From the NCBI GenBank assembly GCA_016699205.1, contig CP064964.1, positions 750,001 to 782,000 on the forward strand: a stretch of 32,000 nucleotides of DNA. The letters run 5' to 3'. Under the pieces are notes generated by a model. The model had not been told where the DNA came from. It did no database searches and saw only the letters and a list, made by a program, of their open reading frames with translations. Positions 1-32,000 of the stretch are shown piece by piece. Numbering within the stretch: the first letter of the stretch is position 1; each line of letters opens with the position of its first letter. The DNA is from Candidatus Saccharimonadota bacterium. Lineage in GTDB: Bacteria; Patescibacteriota; Patescibacteriia; 2-12-FULL-60-25. Made by a program: the position numbers and the translations under genes.

Positions 1-461
1 AAGCTGAATACGTCGAGCGTCTTCACAAGCAAGGCCTACGCGAACGCGAGCATGCGGCACAGGTCGATGCTTGGAACAAGGAGCTCGAGCTCAAGAAGGA
101 GATCGACGCTTGGTCGGGCGCTGCTCTCAAGGCAGAGACCACCGGCAAGCTCTCGGATGTCGAGAGGCGCATGAGCGAGATGGAAGGCCGCATGAACGGG
201 TATGAGCGTCGTGCGATTTCCGCTGAGAAGGATCTCGACGAAACCAACGATTTCCTCGAAGTGGCCCGCAAGGAGTTCAAGGCGGCCAAGGAATTGATCG
301 AAGGGATCAAGAAGGGTCCCAATTTCCTGGAAGCCAGAACGGCGCAGATGGCCGAGTACATTTCCCAGCTGGAGGAGAAGCTCGGGATCGAGCGTAAGTC
401 CATCTGGGCTGGCTTGCCCGACTTGGCCTACGGCTCGGTTCCGCCCAAGGCAAAGGCCTAA
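1..461 (+). CDS. 3' part of a coiled-coil protein of unknown function (5' end outside window)
   Basis: Frame 3 is open from base 3 (AEYVERLHKQGLREREHAAQVDAWNKELELKKEIDAW...) and continues into tracked ORF 171..461. The sequence is E/K/L-rich and heptad-like. Stop TAA at 459..461. No family recognised. Confidence 0.6.
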   Translation, partial: AEYVERLHKQGLREREHAAQVDAWNKELELKKEIDAWSGAALKAETTGKLSDVERRMSEMEGRMNGYERRAISAEKDLDETNDFLEVARKEFKAAKELIEGIKKGPNFLEARTAQMAEYISQLEEKLGIERKSIWAGLPDLAYGSVPPKAKA

Positions 462-7129: not shown

Positions 7130-7165
7130 AGTTGAGTTTAGTTTAACAATGAACGCGCGTACAAA

Positions 7166-7196
7166 CAAAAAACCCTCCGAGCGGAGGGTTTTTTGT
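7166..7196 (-). terminator. Rho-independent terminator downstream of the 7206.. minus-strand gene
   Basis: AAAAAACCCTCC, loop GAGC, GGAGGGTTTTTT. The hairpin is symmetric with U-runs on both strands. Confidence 0.8.
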
Positions 7197-8303: not shown

Positions 8304-9329
8304 TTATACGATGTTGCTCGAGCTGACTTCCTTGATCTCGATGCGGCCACCGTTAAGGCTGTTGTTGTAGCTAGCCGAGAGCATGACGCTCTGACCAGAG
8401 GTGATCGAGGTGCGGTCAGCGGTAAGCGTGAGCGTACCGGTCTGGCTGGAGCCATCGAAGTAAATCGTGGAGCTATTCTGGGTAGCGATTTGCGAACCAG
8501 AGTTGTTGAAGACCGTGGCGACGTACTGGGTCGAGGAGTAGCCCGTCTGGTACGGATAGACTGTGACCGTGCAGTAGGTCGTGTCGTAACAGGACTTAAC
8601 AATGGTGTTGGTGCGAACTTCCTTGATCTCGATACGACCTCCATTGAGGCTATTGTTGTAATTCGCATTGAGAGTCACAGACTGACCGCTCGTGATATTG
8701 GTGCGGTCGGATGTGATGGTGAGCGTACCGGTCTGGCCGTTGGAACCATCAAAGTAAATGGTCGGGCCGTACTGGGTGGCGATCTGGTTGCCGTTGGTAT
8801 CGATCACGACGACGAAATATTGCGTCGAAGAATAACCGGTTTGATACGGGTAGATCGCGGTGGAACAGGAAGCGACGTTGTAGCAGGACTTCACAACGTT
8901 ATTGGTGCGGACTTCCTTGATCTCCATGCGCGCGCCACTCGGAATGTTGGCGTTGTAGTTGGCGTAGAGATTTACTTGCTGACCGTTCGTGACGTTTGTG
9001 CGGTCGGAAGTGAGGGTGAGCGTACCGTTTTGCGAAGAACCATTGGTGTAGATCACCGGACCGTATTGGGTTCCGATGTGCGTACCGTTGCTGTTCTTGG
9101 CGACGATGTAGTACTGCACCGAGTTCTGTGAAGAATCGGTGGTCGGGTAGACCGTGACGCTACATGTACTCGTGTTGTAGCAGGTCTTGAGCGTGTTGCT
9201 TGTGCGAACATCCTTGATCTCGAGGTAACCGCTCGTTGGCAATGTGCCGAAGTAGGTACCCGTGAGATACACAGCCTGACCGCTTGTGATCGACGTGCGA
9301 TCAGCGGTGAGGGTCAATGATCCGGACTG
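7209..9329 (-). repeat. Seven tandem ~95-105-aa coding modules (~290-bp period)
   Basis: Recurring protein blocks and recurring DNA strings, for example CTTCCTTGATCTCGAT at 8328, 8619 and 8911 (plus strand). Confidence 0.8.
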
Positions 9330-9896
9330 GCCATTGTTGTTTTGGCCTTGGGTGCGGAGCGAGTCATTTGGGTTGAAGACGCCGTTGTACTCGTTGCTGA
9401 CGTTGTAGTCAGATGTGTTGTAGATCGGCGAGCCAACCGTGTAGTTCACGAAAAATTCATCCGGTACGTCCTGAACCTGGGAGGCCCAGTTAGAACCAAA
9501 GAATTGCGTCGCGAGGTACTCACTCGTGACATGGCGCAAGACGCCGCCGCGTGCGACAGCGTATACCTTAGGGTCCGTCGTAACTTTTACGAGCTTGGCG
9601 CCCGGGCGATAGGTCACGTTTCCGGCGAGCGGAATCGCAAACAGTTCCGAGTCGGAAATGTTTTGGACATTGTCGAATGACGGGAACCACGTGAAGTACG
9701 TGGCAGCATTCGGGAATACATAGCGCTTGCCGTCATTGGCGTACCAATAAACGGTTTGCTGGGACTGTCCGCGGATCGCGGTGTTGGTCGAGGCAGCGAA
9801 TACCGTGGCGACGTTACCGAAAGCGGTAAGCGGCGCGGCGATGAGCGCAACCAAGATCAGACTCAAGAGTGTCTTATTCATAGGATGATATCGCAT
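8304..9896 (-). CDS. Secreted repeat protein, N-terminal part: signal peptide, ~130-aa conserved domain, then ~95-aa Cys-containing tandem modules; ends at an in-frame TAA
   Basis: MRYHPMNKTLLSLILVALIAAPLTAFGNVATVFA/AS (an alternative start ATG is at 9881). The N-terminal domain is homologous to the C-terminus of the 4739..7129 protein. Modules follow the form GTLTLT.DRT.(I/V)T.GQ.V.L.A.YN......R.EIKEVRT...VK(S/T)CY....C...(V/I)YP.......TQY........G..IATQYGP(T/V)IY..G. Confidence 0.85.
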   Translation of the reverse strand: MRYHPMNKTLLSLILVALIAAPLTAFGNVATVFAASTNTAIRGQSQQTVYWYANDGKRYVFPNAATYFTWFPSFDNVQNISDSELFAIPLAGNVTYRPGAKLVKVTTDPKVYAVARGGVLRHVTSEYLATQFFGSNWASQVQDVPDEFFVNYTVGSPIYNTSDYNVSNEYNGVFNPNDSLRTQGQNNNGQSGSLTLTADRTSITSGQAVYLTGTYFGTLPTSGYLEIKDVRTSNTLKTCYNTSTCSVTVYPTTDSSQNSVQYYIVAKNSNGTHIGTQYGPVIYTNGSSQNGTLTLTSDRTNVTNGQQVNLYANYNANIPSGARMEIKEVRTNNVVKSCYNVASCSTAIYPYQTGYSSTQYFVVVIDTNGNQIATQYGPTIYFDGSNGQTGTLTITSDRTNITSGQSVTLNANYNNSLNGGRIEIKEVRTNTIVKSCYDTTYCTVTVYPYQTGYSSTQYVATVFNNSGSQIATQNSSTIYFDGSSQTGTLTLTADRTSITSGQSVMLSASYNNSLNGGRIEIKEVSSSNIV

Positions 9897-10577: not shown

Positions 10578-10664
10578 GCCGAGATGGTGGAACTGGTAGA
10601 CACACCAGCCTTAGGAGCTGGCCCTCGAAAGAGGATGAGAGTTCGAGTCTCTCTCTCGGCACCA
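10578..10664 (+). tRNA. tRNA-Leu (anticodon UAG), type II with long variable arm, CCA encoded
   Basis: Acceptor GCCGAGA/TCTCGGC. D-arm GTGGAACTGGTAGACAC. Anticodon stem CCAGC/GCTGG with loop CTTAGGA. Variable arm CCTCGAAAGAGGAT. T-arm GAGAG-TTCGAGT-CTCTC. Discriminator A followed by CCA. Confidence 0.95.
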
Positions 10665-15154: not shown

Positions 15155-18128
<2,974 letters not shown>

Positions 18129-18272
18129 ATCCAGATGTAAAACTCTGTCGATGGTCGAGCAAGTGCTACATTACGTAGCGCGTAGCAAGTGTTTTCCTAC
18201 TGCCTTGCACGTATCACTTTTGAATCCGCAGTTTGAGTCATCGATTTTGTTTTTCGAATAATCGAAAGCCAA

Positions 18273-18392
<120 letters not shown>

Positions 18393-18396
18393 AGAG

Positions 18397-18428
18397 AAGC
18401 TCAGCTGAAAGGCTGGGCTTTTGTGTTT
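18397..18428 (+). terminator. Rho-independent terminator of the rRNA operon
   Basis: AAGCTCAGC, loop TGAAAG, GCTGGGCTT (one G-U pair), followed by TTTGTGTTT. Confidence 0.75.
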
Positions 18429-18441
18429 GGTAAAAATAGTA

Positions 18442-18467
18442 AGAACGCACCTTGTTGGGTGCGTTCT
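18442..18467 (-). terminator. Terminator hairpin for minus-strand gene 18473..18958
   Basis: AGAACGCACC, loop TTGTTG, GGTGCGTTCT, 5 nt beyond the stop codon. On the minus strand the following sequence is T-rich (TACTATTTTTA). Confidence 0.65.
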
Positions 18468-18472
18468 GTTGA

Positions 18473-18958
18473 TCAGGTACCGAGGATGGTGAGCATCTCG
18501 AGGATCGCGTGCTTGTTTGCAGCAACTCGTCTCTCTTTCTCCGCCTCGATTGTGAGCATATTTTTCACGTGTTGCATGCCGGCGGCCCATGAGCGGATGG
18601 TGGTGGTTGTGTCACCTCCGTCCTCCTCCCATACGACCGTTCCATCCGGATAGAATCGCAGGGTCCAGATCACCCCACGCTCGTCGCGAAGCGTCAAATA
18701 CTGATGCCGTTCATCGCGATGATAGTCGCAGGAGAACTCTTTGTGCCAGCCGCAGAAACTGAGTTCTTTGATGAACTTGTTGAGTGCTTCCTCGAGGGCA
18801 TTGAATCGGTCGGAGTAGAGTGATTGCTCCTGCTCTGTTGACTTATCGTTGAGATGGAATCCCGGAGCTTCGGGAATGTTGAGGATGAGTCGTGGAGTGA
18901 TCTCAGGGTCCAGCGGCGGATCGTTGAAGTTGCCGCTCATTTTGTTTTCACCACCCAT
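18473..18958 (-). CDS. Hypothetical protein
   Basis: 161 aa. The ATG at 18958 is preceded by AGAGG with 5-6-nt spacing. No recognised family. Confidence 0.65.
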   Translation of the reverse strand: MGGENKMSGNFNDPPLDPEITPRLILNIPEAPGFHLNDKSTEQEQSLYSDRFNALEEALNKFIKELSFCGWHKEFSCDYHRDERHQYLTLRDERGVIWTLRFYPDGTVVWEEDGGDTTTTIRSWAAGMQHVKNMLTIEAEKERRVAANKHAILEMLTILGT

Positions 18959-19068
18959 AACTACCTCTTGGAGTCTGAGAACTCGGAAAGGACCTAACTT
19001 TTATAGATGAGATAAGCCAAAAAGTCAAGAGTAGTACTTGGCTTTTGTGTTTGTGCTAATATTTCTTC

Positions 19069-19893
19069 ATGAAAAAGTGCCTGGAACCATCTCCGGAAGA
19101 TTCGGAATTGAAAGCATTAAAAACGCAGGCGGTACAGGATTATATAGCAAGTCGTCCAGAGCGGCCGATACAGTTTGACCTTGACTCGCCTGAATATGAT
19201 CAAGCTCGGGAGGAGGCATTAGCTTTGAGCGAATTTATTAAATCTAAACAAGAATTAGTTGAGCCAATAAGAAGTTCGGTCTCCCATCCGTACCTCAATA
19301 GAGCCGAATCTTGGTTTAGAGGCATTCAGCGAGACTTAGAGAATCCGCGCTCCAGGTCTCTTGATGCTATTCGTAAAGATATTCATGACATAAAAACGGA
19401 ACTAAATCGTAAAGAGCAGGAGTATCATTTAAAGAAACTTCAAGAGGCAAAGAACCCTTTTTCAAAGGAGTCTTGGGAGGAGCAGGTTCGTTTGAGACAG
19501 GATGCGGAGATGGCTTTGGAATTATTGGATGTAATTTCCCGAGCTAAGAAGCCCAAGGATCTTTCTACACGCGAAGAGTCTTTATGGCAGAAGATTATTG
19601 TCCAGGCAAAAGGCCTCAAAAATCAGTACGGGCTCGACAACAAAAGTTTTATACAGGAAGCCCGTGAGGTAATTGAGCGTTCGGCTGAGCTCCAAAGAGT
19701 TTCTGCCAATTATCTGGAACGTTTTTTAGCTATTCGTAGTCGTTTGGAAAAGCGCGCCAAGACTTTGGGTGAGCAGGTAACGAATGAATTGTTTAAACGG
19801 TTAAAACCGGAGTTGGTTGAGTTGGCTAAGAAGGAATTAGCATCTATGGAATTGGATGAAGCTTTAGATGAAATTTTGGTAAGTGCTTTTTAG
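19069..19893 (+). CDS. Hypothetical helical protein encoded by an AT-rich gene
   Basis: 274 aa, K/E/L-rich. Sampled lines give about 32-47% GC, against >60% for the next gene. TGCTAATAT (extended -10-like) ends 6 nt before the ATG, so the mRNA may be leaderless. Confidence 0.6.
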   Translation: MKKCLEPSPEDSELKALKTQAVQDYIASRPERPIQFDLDSPEYDQAREEALALSEFIKSKQELVEPIRSSVSHPYLNRAESWFRGIQRDLENPRSRSLDAIRKDIHDIKTELNRKEQEYHLKKLQEAKNPFSKESWEEQVRLRQDAEMALELLDVISRAKKPKDLSTREESLWQKIIVQAKGLKNQYGLDNKSFIQEAREVIERSAELQRVSANYLERFLAIRSRLEKRAKTLGEQVTNELFKRLKPELVELAKKELASMELDEALDEILVSAF

Positions 19894-19962
19894 ATTCAAC
19901 CCTTTACAAAATTCCTCTTTTTTGCGATGGTTTCCTCGGTTCTTTATTAATCGGAGGTTCCC

Positions 19963-20391
19963 ATGGGTCACAGGGAGTGGTTGAAGGCGGCAGAGACGGT
20001 CGAGGCGCAGAAGCGTCAGCCCGAGGTCGAGGCCAGGGAGATCGAGGAAGAGGCGCGCAAGCTCGAGAGCTTCTTGAGCAGCGTCGAGGGTAATGCCGCA
20101 CGGCGGCTCCTCAAGGCGACGGCCAAGCACATCATCGTCGGCGAGCTCGAGGCTTCCCCGGGGCATGCGATGGTCTGCTTCTTGGATGGCGAAGGACTGC
20201 GGCAGTCCATCGAAGGTAAGGGGCTCTCGGGCGCTTACGCGGGCAACAAGCCCGACATTTCCTCGACAACGCCGGAGCTGGCGACCAAGGCTTTCACGCA
20301 TCCTGATCGTGGGAAGCGCAAGCCGTCTGAGCTCCTGAACTACATTCGCGGTGAGCTCGACAAGATCGCCGAGGCGGTCAAGAAGGGATAG
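19963..20391 (+). CDS. Hypothetical protein
   Basis: 142 aa. The ATG is preceded by GGAGG with 5-nt spacing. GC-rich, no recognised family. Confidence 0.65.
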   Translation: MGHREWLKAAETVEAQKRQPEVEAREIEEEARKLESFLSSVEGNAARRLLKATAKHIIVGELEASPGHAMVCFLDGEGLRQSIEGKGLSGAYAGNKPDISSTTPELATKAFTHPDRGKRKPSELLNYIRGELDKIAEAVKKG

Positions 20392-20401
20392 ATCTGCTGC
20401 T

Positions 20402-20441
20402 GAGTCCGACGCATTGCTTTGCGTCGGACTCTTGCGTTTTG
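20402..20441 (+). terminator. Rho-independent terminator
   Basis: GAGTCCGACGC, loop ATTGCTTT, GCGTCGGACTC, followed by TTGCGTTTTG. Confidence 0.75.
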
Positions 20442-20478
20442 TATCTCTATTTACAGGAAAGGAGTACGCTGTATTGAT

Positions 20479-20649
20479 ATGAATCAAAAATCTCTCGCGA
20501 TGTGGTCTTTCTGGATTGGTGCCGTGATCGTGCTTGTGACGCATGTCTATATGTTGGTGGCGGGATTGCCTGCGTCGCAGATGATGGGACACTCGATATT
20601 GAACTTGGTTGCTGGGGCGCTTGTCATCTTTGGTTGGATGAAGCGCTAG
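20479..20649 (+). CDS. Small two-TM membrane protein (56 aa)
   Basis: MNQKSLAMWSFWIGAVIVLVTHVYMLVAGLPASQMMGHSILNLVAGALVIFGWMKR has two hydrophobic helices. The tracked start at 20419 lies inside the preceding terminator, so I trimmed to the ATG at 20479. Confidence 0.5.
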   Translation: MNQKSLAMWSFWIGAVIVLVTHVYMLVAGLPASQMMGHSILNLVAGALVIFGWMKR

Positions 20650-22496: not shown

Positions 22497-23929
22497 GACG
22501 TTTTGGCTTTGAGAATGTCTTGAAGCGTCTCTTTTTTTATACCGCCCATGGCGTAGAGGACGAGAGCATAGACGATTGCGCCGACAAGGATCGGAATCGC
22601 AACGAATTGATCGCGTAGGAACCAGACAAAAATCGACATGAGTATTGATGCGCCGATTGCGGCGAGGAGAACGCGCGGCTTGAATTCTGTCGGTATGGCT
22701 TTGTGCGAGACGATGATGGAACCAAGTCCGACGAGAACTTCGGAAGCGACGGTGAGCCAGGCAGCTGCCCACATGCCGTACGTTGGAATGAAGAGGAGGT
22801 AGCCGATCACGGCGCCGATCGCAACCGCAATATAAACCGGAATCATTTTACGCTGGCCATCGATTGCGACCACGATATGCGAGAAGACGGTATTTAAATA
22901 AATGGCGGCGACGGCGACGATCAAAATTGAAAGGATGCGACCGGAGTCCGCAAACTCCGGACCGGCGACTAATATCATAATACGTTCGCCGAGGATCCAG
23001 GTGCCGGCCATCATCGGTAAACAAAAGACGAGCATGACATCGATCGAGTTGGTGACGAGGTTTTTGAATTTTGGAAGATCTTTTTTTGCAAAGGCGTTGG
23101 AGAGGATTGGAAGAAGTACGCCGGCATACATGAAGGGGACAGTGATGAGTATTTCAAGTACTCGGTAAGCAGCTCCGTAGATTCCGACCTCGGTTTGAGG
23201 ACGAACAAACGAGAGAATAAGCGTGTCCGCTTTGAAATACGCGAGCCCGAAAGCAATAGAAAGTCCGACCGGCCAGGATCTGTGTAGAGCCATTTTCCAG
23301 AACACTGGGTCCCAATTCCAGTGGAAATCGGCGTATTTGCGGGCAGAGAGGAAGTTGAGGATGAAGTTGCCAAACCCGGCGAGCGAGATGAACCACATGA
23401 TCGGCACGAGGCCCCAGCCCTGCGATTGTGCAATGAGTAATCCGGCGAGTGCGATCACGCGGCCGACATTTTCTGCAATGGCGGCCATCGACATTCTAAG
23501 GTGACGCTGTTGCGCGCCTACGACGACTTGATTCAAGCTCGGGAAAATAAATGAACCGGTGAGAGCGATGATCGCGAGTTTGAGTGCAAGCGGATAAGGA
23601 GAAGCGAGTGCGACCGCTGGCGCGACAAGACCAAGAATCAAAAACGCCATGACGATGCGCAATGTGAAAAGCGCGCTCGTACAGCGCCTCTCATATTTTT
23701 CATCACCGGCATGCTCGCCGAGAAGTGCGACGAGCGTTACGTTCAAGCCGAGGTCGAGAAGTAGTGCGAAGACTTGGAGAAAGGCGTTTGCTGTCGAGTA
23801 GGCACCAAAGCCTTCCGTGCCGAGCTGGCGCGTCATGAGCCCGATGATGACGATGCCGAGAACGGTGGATACGCCTTTACCGAGTATTTGTACGCCTGTA
23901 TTGAGGGCTAGGGAGCGGGCGAGCGACAT
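22478..23929 (-). CDS. MOP-superfamily oligosaccharide or lipid-II flippase (Wzx/MurJ-like polysaccharide biosynthesis protein)
   Basis: Start trimmed to the ATG at 23929 (MSLARSLALNTGVQILGKGVSTVLGIVIIGLMTRQLGTEGFGAYSTANAF...). 483 aa, about 12-14 hydrophobic helices, with the typical N-terminal motif of Wzx/MurJ-type flippases. Confidence 0.75.
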   Translation of the reverse strand: MSLARSLALNTGVQILGKGVSTVLGIVIIGLMTRQLGTEGFGAYSTANAFLQVFALLLDLGLNVTLVALLGEHAGDEKYERRCTSALFTLRIVMAFLILGLVAPAVALASPYPLALKLAIIALTGSFIFPSLNQVVVGAQQRHLRMSMAAIAENVGRVIALAGLLIAQSQGWGLVPIMWFISLAGFGNFILNFLSARKYADFHWNWDPVFWKMALHRSWPVGLSIAFGLAYFKADTLILSFVRPQTEVGIYGAAYRVLEILITVPFMYAGVLLPILSNAFAKKDLPKFKNLVTNSIDVMLVFCLPMMAGTWILGERIMILVAGPEFADSGRILSILIVAVAAIYLNTVFSHIVVAIDGQRKMIPVYIAVAIGAVIGYLLFIPTYGMWAAAWLTVASEVLVGLGSIIVSHKAIPTEFKPRVLLAAIGASILMSIFVWFLRDQFVAIPILVGAIVYALVLYAMGGIKKETLQDILKAKTSNPPLV

Positions 23930-23979
23930 GCGGGCTAGTGTACATTGAACGAATGGGGTTGAACATTTACTATGATGGC

Positions 23980-24714
23980 ATGTTTCTGCGTGGGTTTGCG
24001 ATCTTTTTGTTGATTTGCGGTTTACTGCCGATTCATTTGGTATTGGCCCAGAATGCTTCAAGTACAAATTTTCAGAATACAGACTCCTCGATCTTACCTT
24101 TGATTGTTAATACCCAGTCCGGAAATTTTCAAATTGATGGATCGGTGCAATCGATTGTTGGCAGCGTGCAGAGTCCTTCTTTCCTGGTGGAAAGCGGAGC
24201 ACAATCAACGAGCGGAACAACGCCGACCGTTGTCGTCATACCGCCTCCTAGCGGAGGGGGAGGTGGCGGAGGAGGGCTTCCGTTGCCTCAAACGGGACCG
24301 AGACTTGAGCCCGCGCCTACAATTGATCCTCGGGATTGGACCTATAAAACTACGGCTATTGTTCAGGGTTCACGCGGTGTTGATGGTGCGGCTATTTTGC
24401 TGAATAGCTCCGATATTGGCGTGATTTATCCGAATGAACAGCGCTGGGAACGGAGTTTGCCTCTTGGACTGGGGGATAATTTGATCCAGATTCAAGCAAA
24501 ACTCGGAGATCGCGTTTCTATCGTTGTTATAGGTATGGTGCATCGTCGTTTGATCGGGGATGTGAATGATGATCGGGTGGTTGATGATGTCGATCTTTCT
24601 TTGTTCACCAGGCACTGGCGTCGTTATGATCGCCAGTCTGATTTTAATGAAGATGGTATGATTGATGATATCGATCTATCGTTGCTCGCCAGTCATTGGG
24701 GTCGACGATATTGA
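23980..24714 (+). CDS. Secreted protein with C-terminal dockerin-like duplicated Ca-binding repeat
   Basis: Start at ATG 23980 (MFLRGFAIFLLICGLLPIHLVLA/QNAS) or 23953. Gly8 linker. The C-terminus carries two EF-hand-like dockerin segments, GDVNDDRVVDDVDLSLFTRHW and DFNEDGMIDDIDLSLLASHW. The TGA stop is 2 nt before the next ATG. Confidence 0.75.
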   Translation: MFLRGFAIFLLICGLLPIHLVLAQNASSTNFQNTDSSILPLIVNTQSGNFQIDGSVQSIVGSVQSPSFLVESGAQSTSGTTPTVVVIPPPSGGGGGGGGLPLPQTGPRLEPAPTIDPRDWTYKTTAIVQGSRGVDGAAILLNSSDIGVIYPNEQRWERSLPLGLGDNLIQIQAKLGDRVSIVVIGMVHRRLIGDVNDDRVVDDVDLSLFTRHWRRYDRQSDFNEDGMIDDIDLSLLASHWGRRY

Positions 24715-24716
24715 TT

Positions 24717-25898
24717 ATGAAGCGTTTCTTTTTTCTTTTTGCTCTCCTCCTGCTCGTGCCGCGAGATGTTTTTGCCGCATCTGCCGGTTTGACGGGGCCA
24801 GCTGAGGTTCAGGTTGGGAGAACGTTCCAGGTACGTATGACGGTTGGGGGAGCTGTTGATGTTGATACGGTGCGTTTTGTGGGCTCGTTTCCTACGGATT
24901 TGCTCGAGTTTCAAGGGATGGCGAATGGATCGTCTTTGCCGACGCGCTCGCCTGGATCAGGTGCAACGGGTGGAACGTTTAATTTTGGCGGTTTCTCTTT
25001 AGGGAATCCGGTGAATGGTGGAACGCAGGCCGGTGTCCTGACATTTCGTGCGAAAAAAATTGGAGAGGCGACGATTTCTCTGCAAGGAGGAACGCGTATT
25101 TTGTCCGCAGGAGAAGATCAGACGACAGGACGGGGGAGTTTGAAGATCAAGATCGTGGAAGCTCCGGCACCCGGCGAGATTCCGGTGACGCCGCCGGTTC
25201 AGACGACGATCGATCTTTTGAGTAAGACGCATCCTGATCAGAATGTCTGGTATCCAAAGCGAGGCCTTGGTCTTGAGTGGAAATTCAGCGGAAGACAGCC
25301 GATTTCTTACACGGTTGGTTTTGATCAGGCGCCGGAAGGTCCTGCGGAGATGAGAGCTGTTGCTACAAGCTCGGCTTCATTTGATGCTCCAAACGATGGC
25401 GTTTGGTATGGTCATTTGGTTGTCCGTTACTCTGCGAGCGAGATTGTCCGTAAAGACTTCCGTTTCTTGGTTGATTCAACAGCTCCACGTCCGTTGGCGG
25501 TGTCTGTTGACCAGAACGATGTTCGTCCGCAAACGCCGAATTTTCTTAGATTTACAGCTTTGGATGATGCTTCTGGTGTCGCGCGTTACGACGTTAGTAT
25601 CAATGAAACATTCGTCACTTCTACAGCATTGCCTTACTTGTCTTTGGCTGAGCTCGGTGCTGGGGACTATCGTGCTCGAGTGCGCGCTGTTGACTATGCA
25701 GGTAATGCCTCGGAAGGGGTTACCGAGTTCCGCCTTACGGACAAGATCACAGGTGTTGATGCGGATCTCGTACGAGCTGAGCGATGGCAAGATTCTATTT
25801 TGCGCTTAGTTCTGGCATTTTTTGCCATTCTTCTCTTGTTTATTTTTGGGATTTTGGTGGGGCGACGTACATTGGAAAAGAAGCGACGTAAAAAATAA
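24717..25898 (+). CDS. Cohesin-like domain protein with Ig-like domains and C-terminal TM anchor
   Basis: ATG at 24717 (MKRFFFLFALLLLVPRDVFA/AS). The N-terminal ~130 aa fit the cohesin pattern (VQVGRTFQVRMTVGGAVDVDTVRFVGSFPTDLLEFQG...GVLTFRAKKIGEATISL). The middle contains SKTHPDQNVWY and D.AGN-type beta-sandwich motifs (RVRAVDYAGNAS). The C-terminus is ILRLVLAFFAILLLFIFGILVG-RRTLEKKRRKK. Confidence 0.7.
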   Translation: MKRFFFLFALLLLVPRDVFAASAGLTGPAEVQVGRTFQVRMTVGGAVDVDTVRFVGSFPTDLLEFQGMANGSSLPTRSPGSGATGGTFNFGGFSLGNPVNGGTQAGVLTFRAKKIGEATISLQGGTRILSAGEDQTTGRGSLKIKIVEAPAPGEIPVTPPVQTTIDLLSKTHPDQNVWYPKRGLGLEWKFSGRQPISYTVGFDQAPEGPAEMRAVATSSASFDAPNDGVWYGHLVVRYSASEIVRKDFRFLVDSTAPRPLAVSVDQNDVRPQTPNFLRFTALDDASGVARYDVSINETFVTSTALPYLSLAELGAGDYRARVRAVDYAGNASEGVTEFRLTDKITGVDADLVRAERWQDSILRLVLAFFAILLLFIFGILVGRRTLEKKRRKK

Positions 25899-25952
25899 GT
25901 TGGATCTTGATTAGTTACCCACAGTTTTAGCTAATTTTTGCAGAAAAAGGAG

Positions 25953-25958
25953 TATAAT
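25953..25958 (+). promoter_or_regulatory. Perfect TATAAT -10 hexamer upstream of the giant gene
   Basis: TATAAT at 25953..25958 follows AAAAGGAG. No convincing -35 at 17 nt. It lies 47 nt before the ATG at 26006. Confidence 0.35.
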
Positions 25959-26005
25959 TGATTTGGCCGTTGAACCCTTGTTCCACGGTAATATTCAAAT
26001 AAAAA

Positions 26006-29000
26006 ATGGAGCCAAAGCGGGTGGTTAAAATCAAGCGTACGTTTCGGAAAACAATTGCCACGATCCTTTCCTTGATTCAATTGTCAGGAATGGGGCTTTT
26101 TCCGAATGCTCCAACATTTTTCTTGGATTTTTTCCGTGCATTACCTGCGTACGCAGCCACTCCGACAACACTCGGTTATCAGGGGCGACTTAAAAATTCT
26201 TCCAGTGTCGCATTAAGCGGTAGTTATAATTTTACTTTTCGATTGTATTCGGCTGCTTCCGGAGGCGTATCGCTTTGGACGGAGACACAGACAGGTGTAA
26301 GTGTTAGTGATGGATATTTTGCGGTTCGGCTTGGTTCTGTCACCCCGTTTCCATCGACGTTTGATTTTAATCAGCCGCTGTATCTCACCACAGAAGTGAA
26401 TAGCGATGGTGAAATGTCGCCGCGTGTTGCTGTTAATAATGTTGCGTACGCGTATACGGCTGGCGGCATCAACTCCCTCGACAGTGATCCAGTTTCCGCG
26501 ACAGGTGGAAGAATGTATTATAATACAACCGATGGCAGTTTGCGTTACTATGATGGCCAAGCGGCTCTTTGGACGATTTTAGGCTCATCCGGTTCCTCGA
26601 CGAGCTTGCAGGCAGTAACGAATGTTGGGAATAGCACGACAAATGCGTTGATTTTTGCCGGCGGAACATCGACAGCGAATTTTGTCTTTCAATCAAACGT
26701 GACGGTTGGTGGGTCAGCAACGCTTCAGAATTTTACGTTTAGCGCTGGTTCAGGAACGAGCATGGTAACGACTAACTCGACCTCAACGAATCTCTTTGCG
26801 TCCAATGCCGTGTTCACAAGTCTTTCTGTCGGCACCTTTAATCCGACCAATATTACTTGGACGAATGCAACGGGTACGAATACGACTACGACAAATTTGG
26901 GAGTGCTTGGACCCGCATCGATCGCCGGTCTTTTGACGTTTGGCTCGGCGACCGGATCGACATTGAATGCGAATAGTACGAATATCGGGAGCGGTACGAT
27001 CGGTACGCTTTCATCGGCGACGGGTACGATTGCTGTTTTGAATTCCGGGAGTGCGAATATCGCCACGCTCTTGTTTGGAAATGCGACGGGATCGACTCTA
27101 AATGCTGTTACTATTTCTGGAACGACTGTTACGACGACGGCGCTTTTTGTGAATGGTCGAGCGGTGTGTCTTGTTGACGGTACGAATTGTCCGGCCTCCG
27201 GAACCGAGAGTGATACGCTTGCTTCCGTTACCAATCGAGGCGCTTTTGCTACCTCGAGCGTCACGCTCTTTGGCGGCCTCACCACTTCCAACCTCACCGC
27301 GACTGGAACCACCTCGCTTCAGAACACCACCGCAACCAATCTCGCCTCAACGGGATTGCTCTCGTTTGTTGCTGCAACCGGCTCTACGCTTAACGCCAAC
27401 TTCGCCTCCTTCGCCTCGGCTACCATTGCCGGACAGGGGATTTGTTTGCAGAACGGCGTTGGTTGTCCGAGTACTGCTACCGAAGCCGATACCCTGGCCT
27501 CGGTTACGAACCGTGGAGCCTTTGCGACTTCAAGTGTCACGCTCTTCGGCGGCCTCACCACTTCCAACCTTACCGCCACCGGAACGCTCTCGGTTACAGG
27601 CGTTTCCTCCCTTGCCGGCGTTACCTTCACGAATGCGACGGGCACTAATGCCACGACGACGAATTTCTTTGCGACGAATGGAGTCTTCACAAATCTCATC
27701 GCTTCTACCTTCACGGTTGCAACTCTTAACACCACGAATCTCACATGGACGAATGCAACGGGTACGAATACGACTTCCACCAATCTTTTTGGTTCGAACC
27801 TCGGTTTCTCAAGCGCTACAGGAACCTCTTTGAACACAAACACGCTTAATGCCGGTTCTGTCACTCTTGGCACGGCAACGGTTTCAGGTCTGACGTCTCT
27901 CCAGAACACGGCTCTTACGAACGGAACCTCAACGAACTTTGCCTCTACCGGACTTCTCTCATTCTCGACAGCAACGGGTACCCAGATCCTCGCGAATATC
28001 GGTACATTCTCTACGGCGACGGTTTCTGGTGTCGCTGTCTGTCTTGCGAATGGCGTCGGTTGTCCAAGTGGAACCGTGCTTTCCGATACCCTCCAGTCCG
28101 TTACAGCTCGCGGAAGCTTTACGACGACCACGGTTCAGTTCTTTGGAGGTCTCACGACGAGTGATTTAACAGTTACCGGTACGGCTTCACTTCAAAATAC
28201 GACGGCAACGAATCTCGCCTCGACTGGATTGCTTTCGTTTACTTCAGCGACTGGAACTTCGTTGAATTCAAATAATGCCGCGATTGGAATTTTGTCTTTT
28301 GGTAGCGCAACCGGCTCTACGCTTAACGCAAACTTCGCTTCATTCGCCTCGGCTACCGTTGCAGGGCAGGGGATTTGTTTGCAGAACGGTGTTGGTTGTC
28401 CTTCCACCGCGACTGAAGCCGATACGCTCGCGAGCGTTACGAATCGCGGTTCCTTTGCTACATCATCAGTTACGCTGTTTGGTGGACTTACAACATCGAA
28501 CGTAACAGCAACCGGTACGCTTACTGTTGGTGGGGTATCCTCGTTGGGAGGAGTGACATTCACGGATGCGACTGGAACGAATGCTACGGCTACAAATATT
28601 TTTGCTTCAAACTTAGGATTTACGAATGCGACGGGTTCAATATTGAATGCGAATACGGTTGCCGCGGGTCTGCTCGTGTTCGGAAATGCTACTGGTGCAA
28701 CATTAAATGCTGGAGTTCTTTCCGCTTCTATTGTTACGTCGACCGCAGTGCTCGTAAACGGTATCGCTGTTTGTTTGGCGAATGGAACCAACTGTCCTTC
28801 TAGCACAAGTCCGAATTTCCAGACGGTGACGAATGCCGGTAACACGACGACGAATGCGATCCAGTTTGGAGGAGGTACTTCAACCGGAGACTTTGTCTTT
28901 AGTTCATCGGCTAGCGTTAATGGTTTACTGACTTTTGTAAGTGCCACTGGGTCGATTTTGAACGCCAACTTTGCTTCCTTCGCCTCCGCTACCGTTGCCG

Positions 29001-31660
29001 GACAGGGGATTTGTCTTCAGAACGGTGTCGGCTGTCCGTCTGCCTCAGCTGAAGCCGATACCCTGGCCTCGGTCACGAGTCGCGGAGCCTTTGCGACTTC
29101 AAGTGTGACGTTGTTTGGAGGGCTCACCACTTCCAACCTTACCGCCACCGGCACGCTCTCGGTTACAGGCGTTTCCTCCCTTGCCGGAGTTACCTTCACC
29201 AATGCCACCGGCACCAATACGACTTCCACCAATCTTTTTGGTTCGAACCTCGGTTTCTCAAACGCTACAGGAACCTCTTTGAACACAAACACGCTTAATG
29301 CCGGTTCTGTCACCCTCGGCACGGCAACGGTTTCAGGTCTGACGTCGCTTCAGAACACGGCTCTTACGAACGGAACCTCAACGAACTTTGCCTCGACAGG
29401 GCTTCTCTCGTTCTCAACCGCGACTGGTACCCAGATCCTCGCGAATATCGGTACATTCTCTACGGCGACGGTTTCTGGTGTCGCTGTCTGTCTTGCGAAT
29501 GGCGTCGGTTGTCCGAGCGGTACGGTTCTTTCCGATACGCTTCAGTCGGTCACGGCTCGCGGAAGCTTTACGACGACCACGGTTCAGTTCTTTGGAGGAT
29601 TGAGTGCGTCGAATATTACCGCGACCGGAACCACATCGCTCCAGAACACCACTGCAACGAATCTTGCTGCTACTGGATTGCTTTCGTTTACTTCAGCCAC
29701 GGGAACTTCGTTGAATTCAAATAATGCCGCGATTGGAATTTTGTCTTTTGGTAGCGCGACCGGTTCTACGCTTAATACGAATTTCGCATCCTTCGCTTCT
29801 GCAACGGTCGCGGGACAGGGGATCTGTCTCCAGAACGGTGTTGGCTGTCCTTCGGCTGCCGCTGAAGCCGATACCCTCGCTTCGGTCACGAACCGTGGAG
29901 CCTTTGCGACCACAACCCTCACGCTCTTCGGCGGCCTCACCACTTCCAACCTTACCGCCACCGGCACGCTCTCGGTTACAGGCGTTTCCTCCCTTGCCGG
30001 AGTTACCTTCACCAATGCCACCGGCACCAATACGACTTCCACCAATCTTTTTGGTTCGAACCTCGGTTTCTCAAACGCTACAGGAACCTCTTTGAACACA
30101 AACACGCTTAATGCCGGTTCTGTCACCTTCGGCACGGCAACGGTTTCAGGCCTGACGTCTCTCCAGAACACGACGCTAACAAATGGAACCTCGACGAACT
30201 TTGCTTCAACTGGATTGCTTTCGTTCTCGACGGCAACGGGTACCCAGATTCTTGCGAATATTGGTACGTTCTCGACGGCAACCGTCATGGGCGTCGCTGT
30301 GTGTTTGCAGAACGGTGTTGGTTGTCCGAGCGGTACGGTTCTTTCCGATACGCTTCAGTCGGTCACGGCTCGCGGATCATTTACAACAACGACGGTTCAG
30401 TTCTTTGGCGGCCTCACCACTTCCAACCTCACCGCCACCGGAACGACCTCACTTCAGAACACCACGGCCACCAATCTCGCTTCGACTGGATTGCTCTCGT
30501 TTGTTTCAGCGACTGGCTCTACGCTTAACGCCAACTTCGCTTCCTTCGCTTCTGCAACGGTCGCGGGACAGGGGATCTGTCTCCAGAACGGTGTTGGCTG
30601 TCCTTCGGCTGCCGCTGAAGCCGATACCCTCGCTTCGGTCACGAACCGTGGAGCCTTTGCGACCACAACCCTCACGCTCTTCGGCGGCCTCACCACTTCC
30701 AACCTTACCGCCACCGGAACGCTCTCGGTTACAGGCGTTTCCTCCCTTGCCGGCGTTACCTTCACCAATGCCACCGGCACCAATGCCACGACGACGAATT
30801 TCTTTGCGACTAATCTCGGCTTCTCAAATGCTACGGGCACTTCTCTGAACGTGAACGCGTTGTCTGCTGGCTCGGCTGTGCTTGGCACGGTGACCGTTTC
30901 CGGCTCTACCTCGCTTCAGAACACAACTCTCACGAACGGAACCTCAACGAACTTTGCTTCGACAGGACTTCTCTCGTTCTCAACCGCGACTGGTACCCAG
31001 ATCCTCGCGAATATCGGTACATTCTCGACTGCCACGGTTTCTGGTATCGCGGTCTGTCTCGCGAATGGCGTTGGTTGTCCGAGTGGAACGGTACTTTCCG
31101 ATACCCTCCAATCCGTCACGGCTCGCGGCAGCTTCACGACGACCACGGTTCAGTTCTTTGGAGGATTGAGTGCGTCGAATATTACCGCGACCGGAACCAC
31201 ATCGCTCCAGAACACCACTGCAACGAATCTTGCTGCTACTGGATTGCTTTCGTTTACTTCAGCCACGGGAACTTCGTTGAATTCAAATAATGCCGCGATT
31301 GGAATTTTGTCTTTTGGTAGCGCGACCGGTTCTACGCTTAATACGAATTTCGCATCCTTCGCTTCTGCAACGGTCGCGGGACAGGGGATCTGTCTCCAGA
31401 ACGGTGTTGGCTGTCCTTCGGCTGCCGCTGAAGCCGATACCCTCGCTTCGGTCACGAACCGTGGAGCCTTTGCGACCACAACCCTCACGCTCTTCGGCGG
31501 CCTCACCACTTCCAACCTTACCGCCACCGGCACGCTCTCGGTTACAGGCGTTTCCTCCCTTGCCGGAGTTACCTTCACCAATGCCACCGGCACCAATACG
31601 ACTTCCACCAATCTTTTGGTTCGAACCTCGGTTTCTCAAACGCTACAGGAACCTCTTTGA
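26006..31660 (+). CDS. Giant T/S/N/G/A-rich fibre-like surface protein (reading frame broken at 31614..31617; the coding repeat continues to the window end)
   Basis: 1884-aa ORF. Basic N-terminus plus a hydrophobic segment (TIATILSLIQLSGMGLF). A ~130-aa N-terminal domain (TLGYQGRLKNSS..LSGSYNFTFRLYSAASGGVSLWTETQTGVSVSDGYFAVRLG...PLYLTTEVNSDGEMSPRVAVNNVAYAYTA) resembles the N-terminal domain of tail-fibre-like proteins. Alternating repeat modules with Cys-loops follow. Confidence 0.85.
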   Translation: MEPKRVVKIKRTFRKTIATILSLIQLSGMGLFPNAPTFFLDFFRALPAYAATPTTLGYQGRLKNSSSVALSGSYNFTFRLYSAASGGVSLWTETQTGVSVSDGYFAVRLGSVTPFPSTFDFNQPLYLTTEVNSDGEMSPRVAVNNVAYAYTAGGINSLDSDPVSATGGRMYYNTTDGSLRYYDGQAALWTILGSSGSSTSLQAVTNVGNSTTNALIFAGGTSTANFVFQSNVTVGGSATLQNFTFSAGSGTSMVTTNSTSTNLFASNAVFTSLSVGTFNPTNITWTNATGTNTTTTNLGVLGPASIAGLLTFGSATGSTLNANSTNIGSGTIGTLSSATGTIAVLNSGSANIATLLFGNATGSTLNAVTISGTTVTTTALFVNGRAVCLVDGTNCPASGTESDTLASVTNRGAFATSSVTLFGGLTTSNLTATGTTSLQNTTATNLASTGLLSFVAATGSTLNANFASFASATIAGQGICLQNGVGCPSTATEADTLASVTNRGAFATSSVTLFGGLTTSNLTATGTLSVTGVSSLAGVTFTNATGTNATTTNFFATNGVFTNLIASTFTVATLNTTNLTWTNATGTNTTSTNLFGSNLGFSSATGTSLNTNTLNAGSVTLGTATVSGLTSLQNTALTNGTSTNFASTGLLSFSTATGTQILANIGTFSTATVSGVAVCLANGVGCPSGTVLSDTLQSVTARGSFTTTTVQFFGGLTTSDLTVTGTASLQNTTATNLASTGLLSFTSATGTSLNSNNAAIGILSFGSATGSTLNANFASFASATVAGQGICLQNGVGCPSTATEADTLASVTNRGSFATSSVTLFGGLTTSNVTATGTLTVGGVSSLGGVTFTDATGTNATATNIFASNLGFTNATGSILNANTVAAGLLVFGNATGATLNAGVLSASIVTSTAVLVNGIAVCLANGTNCPSSTSPNFQTVTNAGNTTTNAIQFGGGTSTGDFVFSSSASVNGLLTFVSATGSILNANFASFASATVAGQGICLQNGVGCPSASAEADTLASVTSRGAFATSSVTLFGGLTTSNLTATGTLSVTGVSSLAGVTFTNATGTNTTSTNLFGSNLGFSNATGTSLNTNTLNAGSVTLGTATVSGLTSLQNTALTNGTSTNFASTGLLSFSTATGTQILANIGTFSTATVSGVAVCLANGVGCPSGTVLSDTLQSVTARGSFTTTTVQFFGGLSASNITATGTTSLQNTTATNLAATGLLSFTSATGTSLNSNNAAIGILSFGSATGSTLNTNFASFASATVAGQGICLQNGVGCPSAAAEADTLASVTNRGAFATTTLTLFGGLTTSNLTATGTLSVTGVSSLAGVTFTNATGTNTTSTNLFGSNLGFSNATGTSLNTNTLNAGSVTFGTATVSGLTSLQNTTLTNGTSTNFASTGLLSFSTATGTQILANIGTFSTATVMGVAVCLQNGVGCPSGTVLSDTLQSVTARGSFTTTTVQFFGGLTTSNLTATGTTSLQNTTATNLASTGLLSFVSATGSTLNANFASFASATVAGQGICLQNGVGCPSAAAEADTLASVTNRGAFATTTLTLFGGLTTSNLTATGTLSVTGVSSLAGVTFTNATGTNATTTNFFATNLGFSNATGTSLNVNALSAGSAVLGTVTVSGSTSLQNTTLTNGTSTNFASTGLLSFSTATGTQILANIGTFSTATVSGIAVCLANGVGCPSGTVLSDTLQSVTARGSFTTTTVQFFGGLSASNITATGTTSLQNTTATNLAATGLLSFTSATGTSLNSNNAAIGILSFGSATGSTLNTNFASFASATVAGQGICLQNGVGCPSAAAEADTLASVTNRGAFATTTLTLFGGLTTSNLTATGTLSVTGVSSLAGVTFTNATGTNTTSTNLLVRTSVSQTLQEPL

Positions 31661-32000
31661 ACACAAACACGCTTAATGCCGGTTCTGTCACCTTCGGCAC
31701 GGCAACGGTTTCAGGCCTGACGTCTCTCCAGAACACGACGCTAACAAATGGAACCTCGACGAACTTTGCTTCAACTGGATTGCTTTCGTTCTCGACGGCA
31801 ACGGGTACCCAGATCCTCGCGAATATCGGTACGTTCTCGACTGCCACGGTTTCTGGTATCGCGGTCTGTCTCGCGAATGGCGTTGGTTGTCCGAGTGGAA
31901 CGGTACTTTCCGATACCCTCCAATCCGTCACGGCTCGCGGATCATTTACAACAACGACAGTTCAGTTCTTTGGCGGCCTCACCACTTCCAACCTCACCGC
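27150..32000 (+). repeat. Hierarchical coding repeat array (sub-units ~280/334/477 bp; 1566-bp near-perfect super-repeat)
   Basis: Cys-loop codons (TGTCC) recur near 27190, 27465, 28063, 28396, 28797, 29033, 29511, 29845, 30321, 30600, 31077, 31411 and 31887. By eye, 29581..30249 is identical to 31147..31813 except for one missing T. Confidence 0.9.
31618..32000 (+). CDS. Continuation of the giant repeat protein in the +2 frame after a 1-nt deletion (partial, runs off window)
   Basis: From 31618 the frame GGT TCG AAC CTC GGT TTC TCA AAC GCT ACA... is open to base 32000. It encodes the same module sequence (GSNLGFSNATGTSLNTNTLNAGSVTFGTATVSGLTSLQNTTLTNG...) found at 30049 onward. Confidence 0.8.

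Follow-up and report, generated by a model that had tools for sequence, protein, structure and literature searches.

A cohesin–dockerin gene pair of Candidatus Uhrbacteria and related Patescibacteria, conserved ahead of a giant MAT-like fibre gene: a candidate cell-surface socket

Results

Overview of the locus

Three consecutive genes lie at the end of the window, by which we mean the whole 32,000-nucleotide stretch of DNA analysed here (Table 1). Gene 1 encodes a predicted secreted protein that ends in a dockerin, gene 2 encodes a cohesin protein with a C-terminal transmembrane (TM) helix, and the third gene encodes a giant repetitive protein that resembles the MAT fibres of Bdellovibrio.

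Table 1. Genes and protein features of the locus, numbered from the first base of the window
Feature	Residues	Position	Strand	Basis
Gene 1, dockerin adaptor protein (predicted secreted)	244 aa + stop	23980..24714	+	ORF
Gene 1 signal peptide (predicted), VLA/Q	1-23	23980..24048	+	Read from sequence
Gene 1 conserved SxNF-repeat N-region	24-77	24049..24210	+	Alignment A2, local HMM
Gly8 flexible linker in Pro/Gly-rich stretch	92-99	24253..24276	+	Read from sequence
Gene 1 Ig/FN3-like beta-sandwich	105-187	24292..24540	+	AF2
Dockerin module	188-244	24541..24711	+	Pfam PF00404, Foldseek
Gene 2, cohesin protein of type I membrane topology	393 aa + stop	24717..25898	+	ORF
Cohesin domain	21-150	24777..25166	+	Homologues' PF00963 matches, fold
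Ig-like middle domain with THPDQNxWY motif	164-255	25206..25481	+	AF2 beta-sandwich
FN3-like domain with VRAVDYAGNAS	256-345	25482..25751	+	Profile vs PDB
C-terminal TM helix + tail RRTLEKKRRKK	~361-382 (helix)	25797..25895	+	Read from sequence
Giant repetitive secreted protein (MAT-like fibre)		26006..32000, runs off window	+	ORF + orthologues
Fibre conserved N-terminal domain		26141..26530	+	Alignment A5, NF053851

The dockerin protein

The methionine at 23980 is near-invariant in the family alignment (A2), and the reading frame closes with a TGA at 24712-24714. An NCBI protein (P0036) is 100% identical to the gene 1 product; the NCBI version of the gene (IPH19_03810, Candidatus Uhrbacteria) runs to 253 aa from 23953. 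By eye, the N-terminus has the basic N-region, hydrophobic core and AXA-like site of a signal peptide, and a helix is predicted at residues 2-15 of the AF2 model.

The stretch that follows had been described in the preliminary description as a region of ~90 aa. It forms no confident domain (pLDDT ~40 in the AF2 monomer model), but ~55 aa of it are conserved, after which the linker begins. The conserved part is built around the SxNF units STNFQN, SGNFQI and SPSFLV, with S28 and S47 invariant in A2, and the local HMM for this region (‘g1N’) gives E-values of 1e-17 to 1e-25 at all cassette loci. We propose that this N-region is the fibre-binding end of the adaptor. Among 1.8 billion representatives, phmmer found 7 matches to the 54-aa SxNF region; 2 of these had another architecture and were rejected as repeat-protein artefacts.

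The poly-Gly run of the linker is kept across A2. It leads into a beta-sandwich that is modelled with a pLDDT of ~95, lacks a Pfam match and finds only generic FN3/Ig structures with Foldseek; against viral structures, the gene 1 model gave only generic Ig/IPT or low-quality matches. Neither Pfam nor Foldseek indicates a catalytic domain in gene 1, and apart from the Ig-like sandwich and the low-confidence N-region we found no recognisable effector domain.

The dockerin itself is well supported. The whole protein scores 27.4 bits against PF00404 (Dockerin_1; GA 22.9) and the last 57 aa alone score 32.4 bits (E 1.1e-7); most homologues also carry PF00404. Its two Ca2+-loop/helix segments begin at D194 (24559) and D221 (24640). 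Both 12-residue loops are canonical, with D/N/D/D/D at positions 1, 3, 5, 9 and 12: the first, DVNDDRVVDDVD, is followed by the helix LSLFTRHW and the second, DFNEDGMIDDID, by LSLLASHW. The loop residues are invariant in the 47 sequences of A2, and the dockerin, with a mean pairwise identity of 76%, is the best-conserved part of the protein. The helices (203-214 and 230-238, pLDDT ~95) match those of 2y3n_B, a cellulosomal type II dockerin (TMt 0.78, rmsd 1.7, 30% identity). With the 57-aa dockerin as the sole query, a word-indexed search returned 1 fragment. The ORF, the AF2 model and the Pfam score thus uphold the signal peptide, Gly8 linker, ~90-aa domain and duplicated dockerin of the preliminary description.

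The membrane-anchored cohesin protein

The ATG of gene 2 lies 2 nt past the TGA of gene 1, as had been observed before. We found 35 homologues of its product, one of which (P0008, 69% identical) is named ‘cohesin domain-containing protein’ by NCBI; the scan of the genome collection for this family used the trimmed alignment A4 as its query. A signal peptide is predicted, with the site VFA/A.

Profiles for the two modules were a suggested check on the pair. PF00404 passes its cut-off in gene 1, whereas PF00963 is unmatched in the window's gene 2 product, over its full length as well as with the domain taken by itself, and even at E<=10; there is no NCBIfam match to this cohesin either. The Pfam cohesin model does match 16 of the 32 aligned homologues (best E 4.7e-8), and the family profile finds the Archaeoglobus fulgidus cohesin 2xdh in the PDB with an E-value of 0.034. 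The AF2 model of residues 21-150 is a beta-sandwich with a pLDDT of ~90. The top Foldseek match is 2w1n (1.5e-11), a cohesin+FN3 double module; other matches include 2vo8 (TMt 0.83, rmsd 2.5), 2jh2 (0.78) and 2xdh (0.77), as well as the dockerin-bound cohesins 5nrm (0.70) and 4uyq (0.71). Judged by the PF00963 matches of the homologues and by the predicted fold, the N-terminal domain is a cohesin. It is also the best-conserved module of the protein (62%).

In the Ig-like middle domain the motif reads THPDQNVWY in the window, and S169, W178 and W188 are invariant in alignment A1. Tandem copies of this domain occur in the giant proteins of loci L017 and L018. The FN3-like domain finds the FnIII module of chitinase A1 (1k85, E 4.5e-6) in the profile search of the PDB, and an OmpL47-type NCBIfam domain at 7.8e-7, which is under the cut-off of that model. 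A helix is predicted by AF2 at 357-392, and A1 shows conservation of both the hydrophobic stretch and the basic tail. The architecture and membrane topology put forward earlier for gene 2 (signal peptide, cohesin, two beta-sandwiches, TM helix and K/R tail) therefore stand.

The giant downstream gene

The third gene starts 107 nt after gene 2, and the gap contains a TATAAT-like element; a promoter and terminator scan of 23700-26200 gave nothing beyond the shuffled background. A T5 run at ~31610 has lost 1 nt, which produces an apparent stop at 31660. The C-terminus of the window's own giant protein lies past base 32000, and orthologues range from 1701 to >4824 aa. Repeats were found in the gene by a repeat search, with a period beyond the limit of Tandem Repeats Finder.

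An AXA signal-peptidase site lies directly 5′ of the fibre N-domain, which has a mean column identity of 71% (alignment A5). NF053851 (Bdello_MAT_N) is matched by 13/13 of these domains with a best E-value of 1.3e-10; the match scores ~36 bits where the cut-off is 60, and it extends over positions 8-77 of the 162 in the model, so we consider the domain distantly related to the Bdellovibrio MAT N-domain. The L001 orthologue also has Peptidase_S74 in two stretches (87 bits), which the L003 and L010 orthologues lack. None of the complete giant orthologues examined has a dockerin or a cohesin, nor, by eye, a C-terminal TM helix. Without these, and with an AXA site in front of its N-domain, the fibre would need an anchor.

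A conserved three-gene cassette

In the window and at L001-L015, a dockerin gene is followed by a cohesin gene and then by a giant gene that has the conserved N-domain; L001-L015 were retrieved via the cohesin protein at identities down to 39%. An independent retrieval via the fibre N-domain gave the same order at 19/23 evaluable metagenome loci. The three-gene order is thus conserved and is recovered from both search directions. At about 30 loci, the distance from the gene 1 stop to the gene 2 ATG is 1-12 nt, which suggests putative translational coupling and a matched output of both proteins. The pair is absent upstream at 4/23 close fibre-N-domain loci, and distant homologues of the N-domain are mostly without a detectable pair, so the N-domain is able to exist without it.

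L003 has a second, paralogous dockerin/cohesin-TM pair, which has co-diverged and has another type of dockerin sequence. In a mirror-tree comparison, dockerin and cohesin identities correlate with a rho of 0.86, no higher than for unrelated domain pairs (0.6-0.89).

Outside the family, the non-CPR contigs L081 and L098 have a small SxNY + dockerin protein directly upstream of a fibre-N-domain gene. When compared with the family profiles by hhalign, the SxNY regions of L041, L067, L081, L087 and L098 and a putative cohesin-like PEP-CTERM protein of L081 gave probabilities <=25%; the SxN[YF] likeness of these proteins is at the level of the motif only.

Discussion

The preliminary description had placed the pair outside any cellulosome context. 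There is indeed no cellulosome, but a context does exist, as the pair opens a conserved three-gene cassette. The window contains one dockerin and one cohesin only, no CBM was found with the pair, and no glycoside hydrolase is encoded by the tested window ORFs of >=150 aa, in agreement with the earlier statement that none is nearby. We therefore rejected a cellulosome reading, given the lack of enzymes and of a CBM and the presence of just one cohesin. A variant of it, in which gene 2 is a minimal cellulosome-like scaffold and its cohesin presents carbohydrate-active enzymes that carry dockerins and come from other parts of the genome, strikes us as very improbable. Cohesins and dockerins are the defining modules of cellulosomes, and our enzyme survey covers the window ORFs out of a genome of ~1.08 Mb. 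That said, the variant has to face the same findings, a gene 1 that lacks a catalytic domain and a neighbourhood that consists of a flippase, a hexapeptide transferase, YecM and rRNA genes.

The most economical reading of the pair is a 1:1 extracellular cohesin-dockerin dock. We favour it because of the gene order and spacing, the conservation of the two modules, the paralogous pair of L003 and the presence of just one module of each kind in the window. The two proteins might instead not interact at all, each being an adhesin-type binder of host glycans or proteins, and be linked merely as surface factors. There are precedents for this: host-associated glycans have been put forward as the target of dockerin-domain proteins in Patescibacteria (PMC10633639), and non-cellulosomal dockerins of Omnitrophota have been proposed as adhesins (PMC10066038). 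We find it quite improbable here, since it does not account for the strict adjacency of one dockerin and one cohesin at 1-12 nt, for paralogous pairs that have diverged jointly, or for conservation that peaks exactly in the dockerin and cohesin modules. Host-facing adhesins are usually the fastest-varying proteins.

Our main proposal is that genes 1 and 2 form a cell-surface socket that holds or organises the fibre in Candidatus Uhrbacteria and related Patescibacteria, a reading to which we give about an even chance. Once exported, the gene 2 product would stay in the membrane through the helix at its C-terminus and keep the K/R tail in the cytoplasm, and it would display its single cohesin at the tip of an FN3/Ig stalk. 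The gene 1 product would be secreted and plug its Ca2+-dependent C-terminal dockerin into this cohesin, so that a Gly-rich leash would keep the SxNF N-region at the cell. A giant secreted fibre, presumably trimeric and with no anchor in its own sequence, would come from the third gene. Its N-domain may then be held or organised by the cohesin-dockerin complex, probably via the gene 1 N-region, and the fibre would serve to attach the bacterium to other cells or to surfaces.

A life spent attached to other cells is assumed for CPR/Patescibacteria. To our knowledge, the hardware that they use for attachment is largely unknown, with the exception of type IV pili. The cassette of cohesin socket, dockerin adaptor and giant fibre offers a testable model for the mounting of very long adhesive fibres. 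Many ‘orphan’ cohesin-dockerin pairs occur outside cellulolytic organisms, and the socket, if true, would give one of them a defined non-enzymatic role.

The generic display module that was suggested earlier is too unspecific, because the pair is followed by a giant MAT-like fibre gene wherever a related locus offers enough sequence. As no dockerin is present in the complete giant proteins either, the pair looks dedicated to the fibre. A stand-alone complex that works independently of the giant gene, e.g. as a small adhesin in its own right or as an organiser of the wall or matrix, would share all the domain calls and the topology with the socket, and the neighbourhood would reflect nothing but shared regulation of surface genes. 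The TATAAT-like element in the 107-nt gap may give the giant gene its own promoter, and the four close fibre loci without the pair also fit. Set against this is a three-gene order that is kept down to 39% identity in both search directions, and a gene 1 without a recognisable effector domain. On balance we regard this alternative as unlikely.

Synteny alone cannot tell an anchor from an assembly factor. The pair could be an accessory for assembly or secretion, in which the tethered gene 1 protein transiently binds nascent fibre N-termini at the membrane and nucleates trimerisation before the fibre is passed on to a different surface structure or released. This too is in keeping with the conserved synteny, the gene 1 N-region may fold on binding only, and the fibres already rely on dedicated S74 chaperone domains. 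Yet an intramolecular S74 chaperone (PMC10769870) already explains trimer folding in the L001 orthologue, and a cohesin on an Ig and FN3 stalk above the membrane resembles an architecture for display. We therefore think an accessory role improbable and return to the socket.

A broader form of the socket proposal is more tentative. The pair may be a cell-surface receptor for the N-domain of MAT-type adhesive fibres, with the SxN[YF] N-region of the adaptor gripping the base of the fibre and the anchor at the opposite end being modular and exchangeable. This anchor would be a dockerin with a cohesin-TM protein in Uhrbacteria, a dockerin beside PEP-CTERM proteins in the Gram-negative contigs L081 and L098, and a direct FN3+TM fusion in L041. 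With such parts, the ultra-small CPR cells could mount and exchange giant host-binding fibres.

As in the Bdellovibrio MAT fibres, the giant protein has a long repetitive shaft and, right behind its signal peptide, a conserved domain of ~130 aa, though the match to the MAT family model is below its cut-off; S74 chaperone/protease domains are present in the L001 orthologue. The proteins described here are much longer (1700 to >4800 aa) and belong to a Gram-positive-type CPR host. In the available text of Caulton et al. (2024, PMC10769870), the MAT N-domain ‘would presumably tightly bind a surface element’, which is still unidentified there, and that text mentions no cohesin or dockerin partner. 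The cassette is a candidate answer to what this invariant N-domain binds on the cell surface. A further parallel comes from the saccharibacterium Southlakia epibionticum, where SEML1_0315 is an essential dockerin-domain envelope protein with a proposed role in host interaction (Wang et al. 2023, PMC10633639); the available text reports neither a cohesin partner nor a link to a fibre. Like gene 1, it is a dockerin-domain protein in a Patescibacterium without a cellulosome, and the likeness is at the level of the dockerin.

Cohesin and dockerin modules outside cellulosomes are themselves not new (Peer et al. 2009, as cited in PMC10066038 and PMC5244752). They comprise the same two module types, employed outside cellulose degradation, and include the cohesins 2xdh of A. 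fulgidus and 2vo8, 2jh2 and 2w1n of Clostridium perfringens, the last of which combines a cohesin with FN3 as gene 2 does. The C. perfringens modules are located on secreted glycoside hydrolases, whereas the gene 2 cohesin is on a TM-anchored stalk. For the pair of A. fulgidus we know of no function. In contrast to both, the dockerin here is on a non-enzymatic adaptor and the pair is fixed beside a giant fibre gene, a link that appears to be new.

The anchoring scaffoldins of cellulosomes (Clostridia, Ruminococcus) likewise pair a cell-attached cohesin with a Ca2+-dependent duplicated dockerin, as we infer for genes 1 and 2. X-Doc dyads also have an Ig-like module ahead of the dockerin, although the X-Doc complex 5m0y_B is a poor match to gene 1 (rmsd 13.8). 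Where cellulosomes have multi-cohesin scaffoldins, CBMs, enzymes and SLH or sortase anchoring, the pair has none of these, and its anchor is the C-terminal TM helix of gene 2.

Gene pair and domain assignment

The preliminary description read gene 1 as encoding a signal peptide, a Gly8 linker, a second domain and a duplicated dockerin. All of these are borne out by the ORF reading and by the Pfam model Dockerin_1 (PF00404), which scores 27.4 bits against the whole protein and 32.4 bits (E 1.1e-7) against the last 57 residues, above the cut-off of 22.9 bits. Both Ca2+ loops of the dockerin are canonical (DVNDDRVVDDVD and DFNEDGMIDDID), and its two 21-residue segments have 11 identical positions. 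The AlphaFold model has a pLDDT of ~95 over residues 105-244 and a poor value of ~40 over the conserved N-region. In Foldseek comparisons the type II dockerin 2y3n_B fits the dockerin helices (TMt 0.78, rmsd 1.7, 30% identity) and the sandwich has generic FN3/Ig matches only; neither Pfam nor Foldseek found an enzymatic or carbohydrate-binding domain in gene 1. The protein matches IPH19_03810 at 100% identity; this record belongs to a Candidatus Uhrbacteria MAG whose contig measures 1.08 Mb.

Coordinates of the cassette genes, their parts and the RNA genes of the window
Feature	Position	Length	Remarks
Gene 1 (+)	ATG 23980, TGA 24712-24714	244 aa	ORF reading
Gene 1 signal peptide	residues 1-23
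Gene 1 conserved region	residues 24-77		three SxNF-like motifs
Gene 1 Gly8	residues 92-99		within a Pro-rich stretch
Gene 1 beta-sandwich	residues 105-187
Gene 1 dockerin	residues 188-244		C-terminal
Gene 2 (+)	ATG 24717 to 25898	393 aa	starts two bases past the gene 1 stop; signal peptide, then three beta-sandwich domains
Gene 2 hydrophobic helix	residues ~361-382		tail RRTLEKKRRKK
Giant fibre gene (+)	26006-32000		runs off the window
Complete 23S rRNA gene and a 5S rRNA gene	15157-18392
tRNA	10578-10661	84 nt

The start of gene 2 just past the gene 1 stop, its signal peptide, three beta-sandwiches, C-terminal helix and basic tail are likewise as had been claimed. Its cohesin stood in part. 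Neither PF00963 nor any NCBIfam model matches gene 2, whole or as the isolated first domain, even at E<=10, and phmmer against PDB sequences returned nothing. However, 16 of the 32 aligned family members do match PF00963 (best E 4.7e-8). One of 35 homologues, at 69% identity, carries the NCBI name 'cohesin domain-containing protein', and the family profile reaches 2xdh, a non-cellulosomal Archaeoglobus fulgidus cohesin, at E 0.034. An alignment-based AlphaFold model of gene 2 (mean pLDDT 85) has as its top Foldseek match 2w1n, a cohesin+FN3 double module (E 1.5e-11). The same model compares with the single cohesins 2vo8, 2jh2 and 2xdh at TM 0.77-0.83, and the solved dockerin-bound cohesins 5nrm, 4uyq and 5n5p likewise align to it. 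The first domain is a predicted cohesin, not evident from its own sequence but evident from its family.

The third domain is FN3-like (profile match to 1k85, E 4.5e-6), and the middle domain is an Ig-like sandwich without a named family. MAGs of candidate division FCPU426 encode ~2470-aa proteins with about 15 tandem copies of this THPDQNxWY-type domain (L017, 7670-15067; L018, 7598-15061), which seems to be a repeat domain of large surface proteins that has no name so far.

The dockerin features of gene 1 and the domain layout of gene 2 confirm that the dockerin/cohesin gene pair is real, with the modules and membrane topology first proposed. With family-specific HMMs, the window yields only a single dockerin and a single cohesin. 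As had been noted, no glycoside hydrolase was found there, nor was any CBM.

A conserved three-gene cassette

The pair had been placed outside any cellulosome context and read as a generic surface-assembly or display module. We replace the generic display with a dedicated partner of the adjacent fibre gene, and consider the earlier interpretation partly supported overall. Contigs were retrieved via gene 2 homologues and scanned with local HMMs, one per domain. The loci L001-L015, which come from Uhrbacteria and 'Patescibacteria group' MAGs and include some repeat retrievals of one contig region, all have the identical order: first the dockerin protein, composed of SxNF region, sandwich and dockerin; then the cohesin protein, with its cohesin, Ig, FN3 and TM parts; and last a giant protein whose N-terminal domain is conserved. 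Gene 2 identity among them is as low as 39%. In the reverse search, a metagenome scan with the giant protein N-domain as query, 23 loci had a close N-domain and sufficient sequence upstream of it, and in 19 of these the pair lies directly upstream. It is absent in the other four, and most of the distant N-domain homologues have no detectable dockerin/cohesin pair; these pair-less fibre loci weaken the tether model proposed below.

The gene 1 stop and the gene 2 ATG are 1-12 nt apart in about 30 loci, a spacing compatible with translational coupling. The best-conserved module of each protein is the dockerin (76%) and the cohesin (62% mean pairwise identity, 17 matched pairs); column identity in the fibre N-domain averages 71%. 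Typical Uhrbacteria-type cassettes also occur in contigs publicly labelled 'uncultured Gammaproteobacteria bacterium' or 'Verrucomicrobiae bacterium' (L015, CAZQNT010000015.1; protein records P0013/P0077), and these labels are probably binning or labelling errors.

The giant protein, a putative fibre

Within the window the giant protein exceeds 1884 aa, is built of ~813-nt repeats and continues past the window end. Long imperfect direct repeats fill 27348-31875 (period about 753-933 nt, mostly 813 nt; copies 73-100% identical in DNA) and code for Thr/Asn/Gly-rich units of the TNATGTNTTSTNLF type, in which Cys pairs (CLxNGxxCP) recur at regular spacing. The ORF stops at 31660 because of a 1-nt deletion: at 31600-31660 one copy reads ACCAATCTTTTGG (T4) and three others read CTTTTTGG (T5). 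The repeat goes on in the +2 frame until the window ends. Either a homopolymer error in the assembly or genuine slippage at this site would explain the difference.

According to PMC10769870, the signal peptide of every Bdellovibrio mosaic adhesive trimer (MAT) fibre is directly followed by a conserved domain of ~130 aa, which the authors presume to bind a surface element tightly. The N-domain here follows an AXA signal-peptidase site, and 13 of 13 examples match the NCBIfam model of the MAT N-domain, NF053851 (best E 1.3e-10), but with 36 bits against a curated cut-off of 60 and over about half of the model. This putative relation is sub-threshold, which weakens the tether model. Complete orthologues have 1701, 2254 and 2846 aa and contain no dockerin or cohesin; in that of L001, Peptidase_S74 chaperone stretches occur twice. 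Inspection by eye shows no C-terminal TM helix in the L001 and L003 orthologues.

A possible tether for the fibre

Beside the observed domains, topology, gene order, spacing and conservation, we infer a series of binding steps. Gene 2 would be a type I membrane stalk displaying a single cohesin, onto which the gene 1 dockerin would dock. The gene 1 N-region, on its Gly/Pro leash, would grip the base of the secreted fibre, which has no anchor of its own and would be held via this tether. Alternatively, the pair could be an assembly factor of the fibre and not its anchor; synteny fits both. We give the full tether model an even chance.

Related arrangements lend the tether indirect support. Three proteins make up a second, paralogous set downstream of the L003 fibre gene (15721-18788). 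The first, of 359 aa, has SxNY, poly-Gly and a dockerin of another sequence type (DLNCDTKVNLIDFSIAAFWY); the next, of 299 aa, combines cohesin, FN3 and TM; the third has cohesin, Ig and FN3. The second set suggests that cognate pairs diverged together. At L081 (3007-6798) and L098 (79-3706), a MAT-like N-domain gene is immediately preceded by one for a small SxNY + thrombospondin-type-3 (TSP3) + dockerin protein (Pfam 25.2 and 22.4 bits). These metagenome contigs encode PEP-CTERM proteins and are therefore probably Gram-negative, not CPR. The L081 dockerin protein is preceded by a 206-aa PEP-CTERM protein, cohesin-like by eye, without hhalign support. At L041 (3735-5891) the protein encoded upstream of the MAT-like N-domain gene has 688 aa: its N-region is rich in SxNY, and it has Ig/FN3-like domains and, at the C-terminus, a TM helix with a basic tail. 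This one chain may correspond to genes 1 and 2 combined, minus the cohesin-dockerin joint; its SxNY resemblance to gene 1 is at motif level only (hhalign probability 25%).

Relation to known systems

Catalogues of cohesin and dockerin modules from outside cellulosomes go back to Peer et al. 2009, as cited in PMC10066038 and PMC5244752; in the latter their function there 'is not known'. Solved structures of A. fulgidus and C. perfringens modules are among our Foldseek matches and public annotation names relatives of both genes cohesin or dockerin, so the domain finding itself is not new. Full-text searches on dockerin or cohesin in CPR, Patescibacteria or Uhrbacteria, and on fibre or S74 in CPR, turned up no account of the cassette. 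The nearest item, from PMC10633639, is a saccharibacterial envelope protein that has a dockerin domain and is essential. What we rate as new is a minimal, non-enzymatic 1:1 cohesin-dockerin tether, as proposed here, fixed beside a MAT-like giant fibre gene.

Other features of the window

The rRNA operon is unlinked, since the entire 32 kb of the window hold no 16S rRNA gene. Other genes encode ribosomal protein S6, a class II tRNA synthetase, a SPOUT methyltransferase, PP2C, YecM, a hexapeptide transferase and a divergent polysaccharide flippase. G+C dips to 0.42 at 19001-20000, with flanks of about 0.52-0.56, and the ORFs in this stretch (19069-19893, +; 19864-20592, -) have no Pfam match. 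Two further ORFs (7206-8270 and 8304-9896, -), without a convincing family match, adjoin the gene for an 808-aa protein (4739-7168, -). This has Big_7/Ig-like domains and weak matches to the gene 2 FN3-like profile, and is a probable further surface protein.
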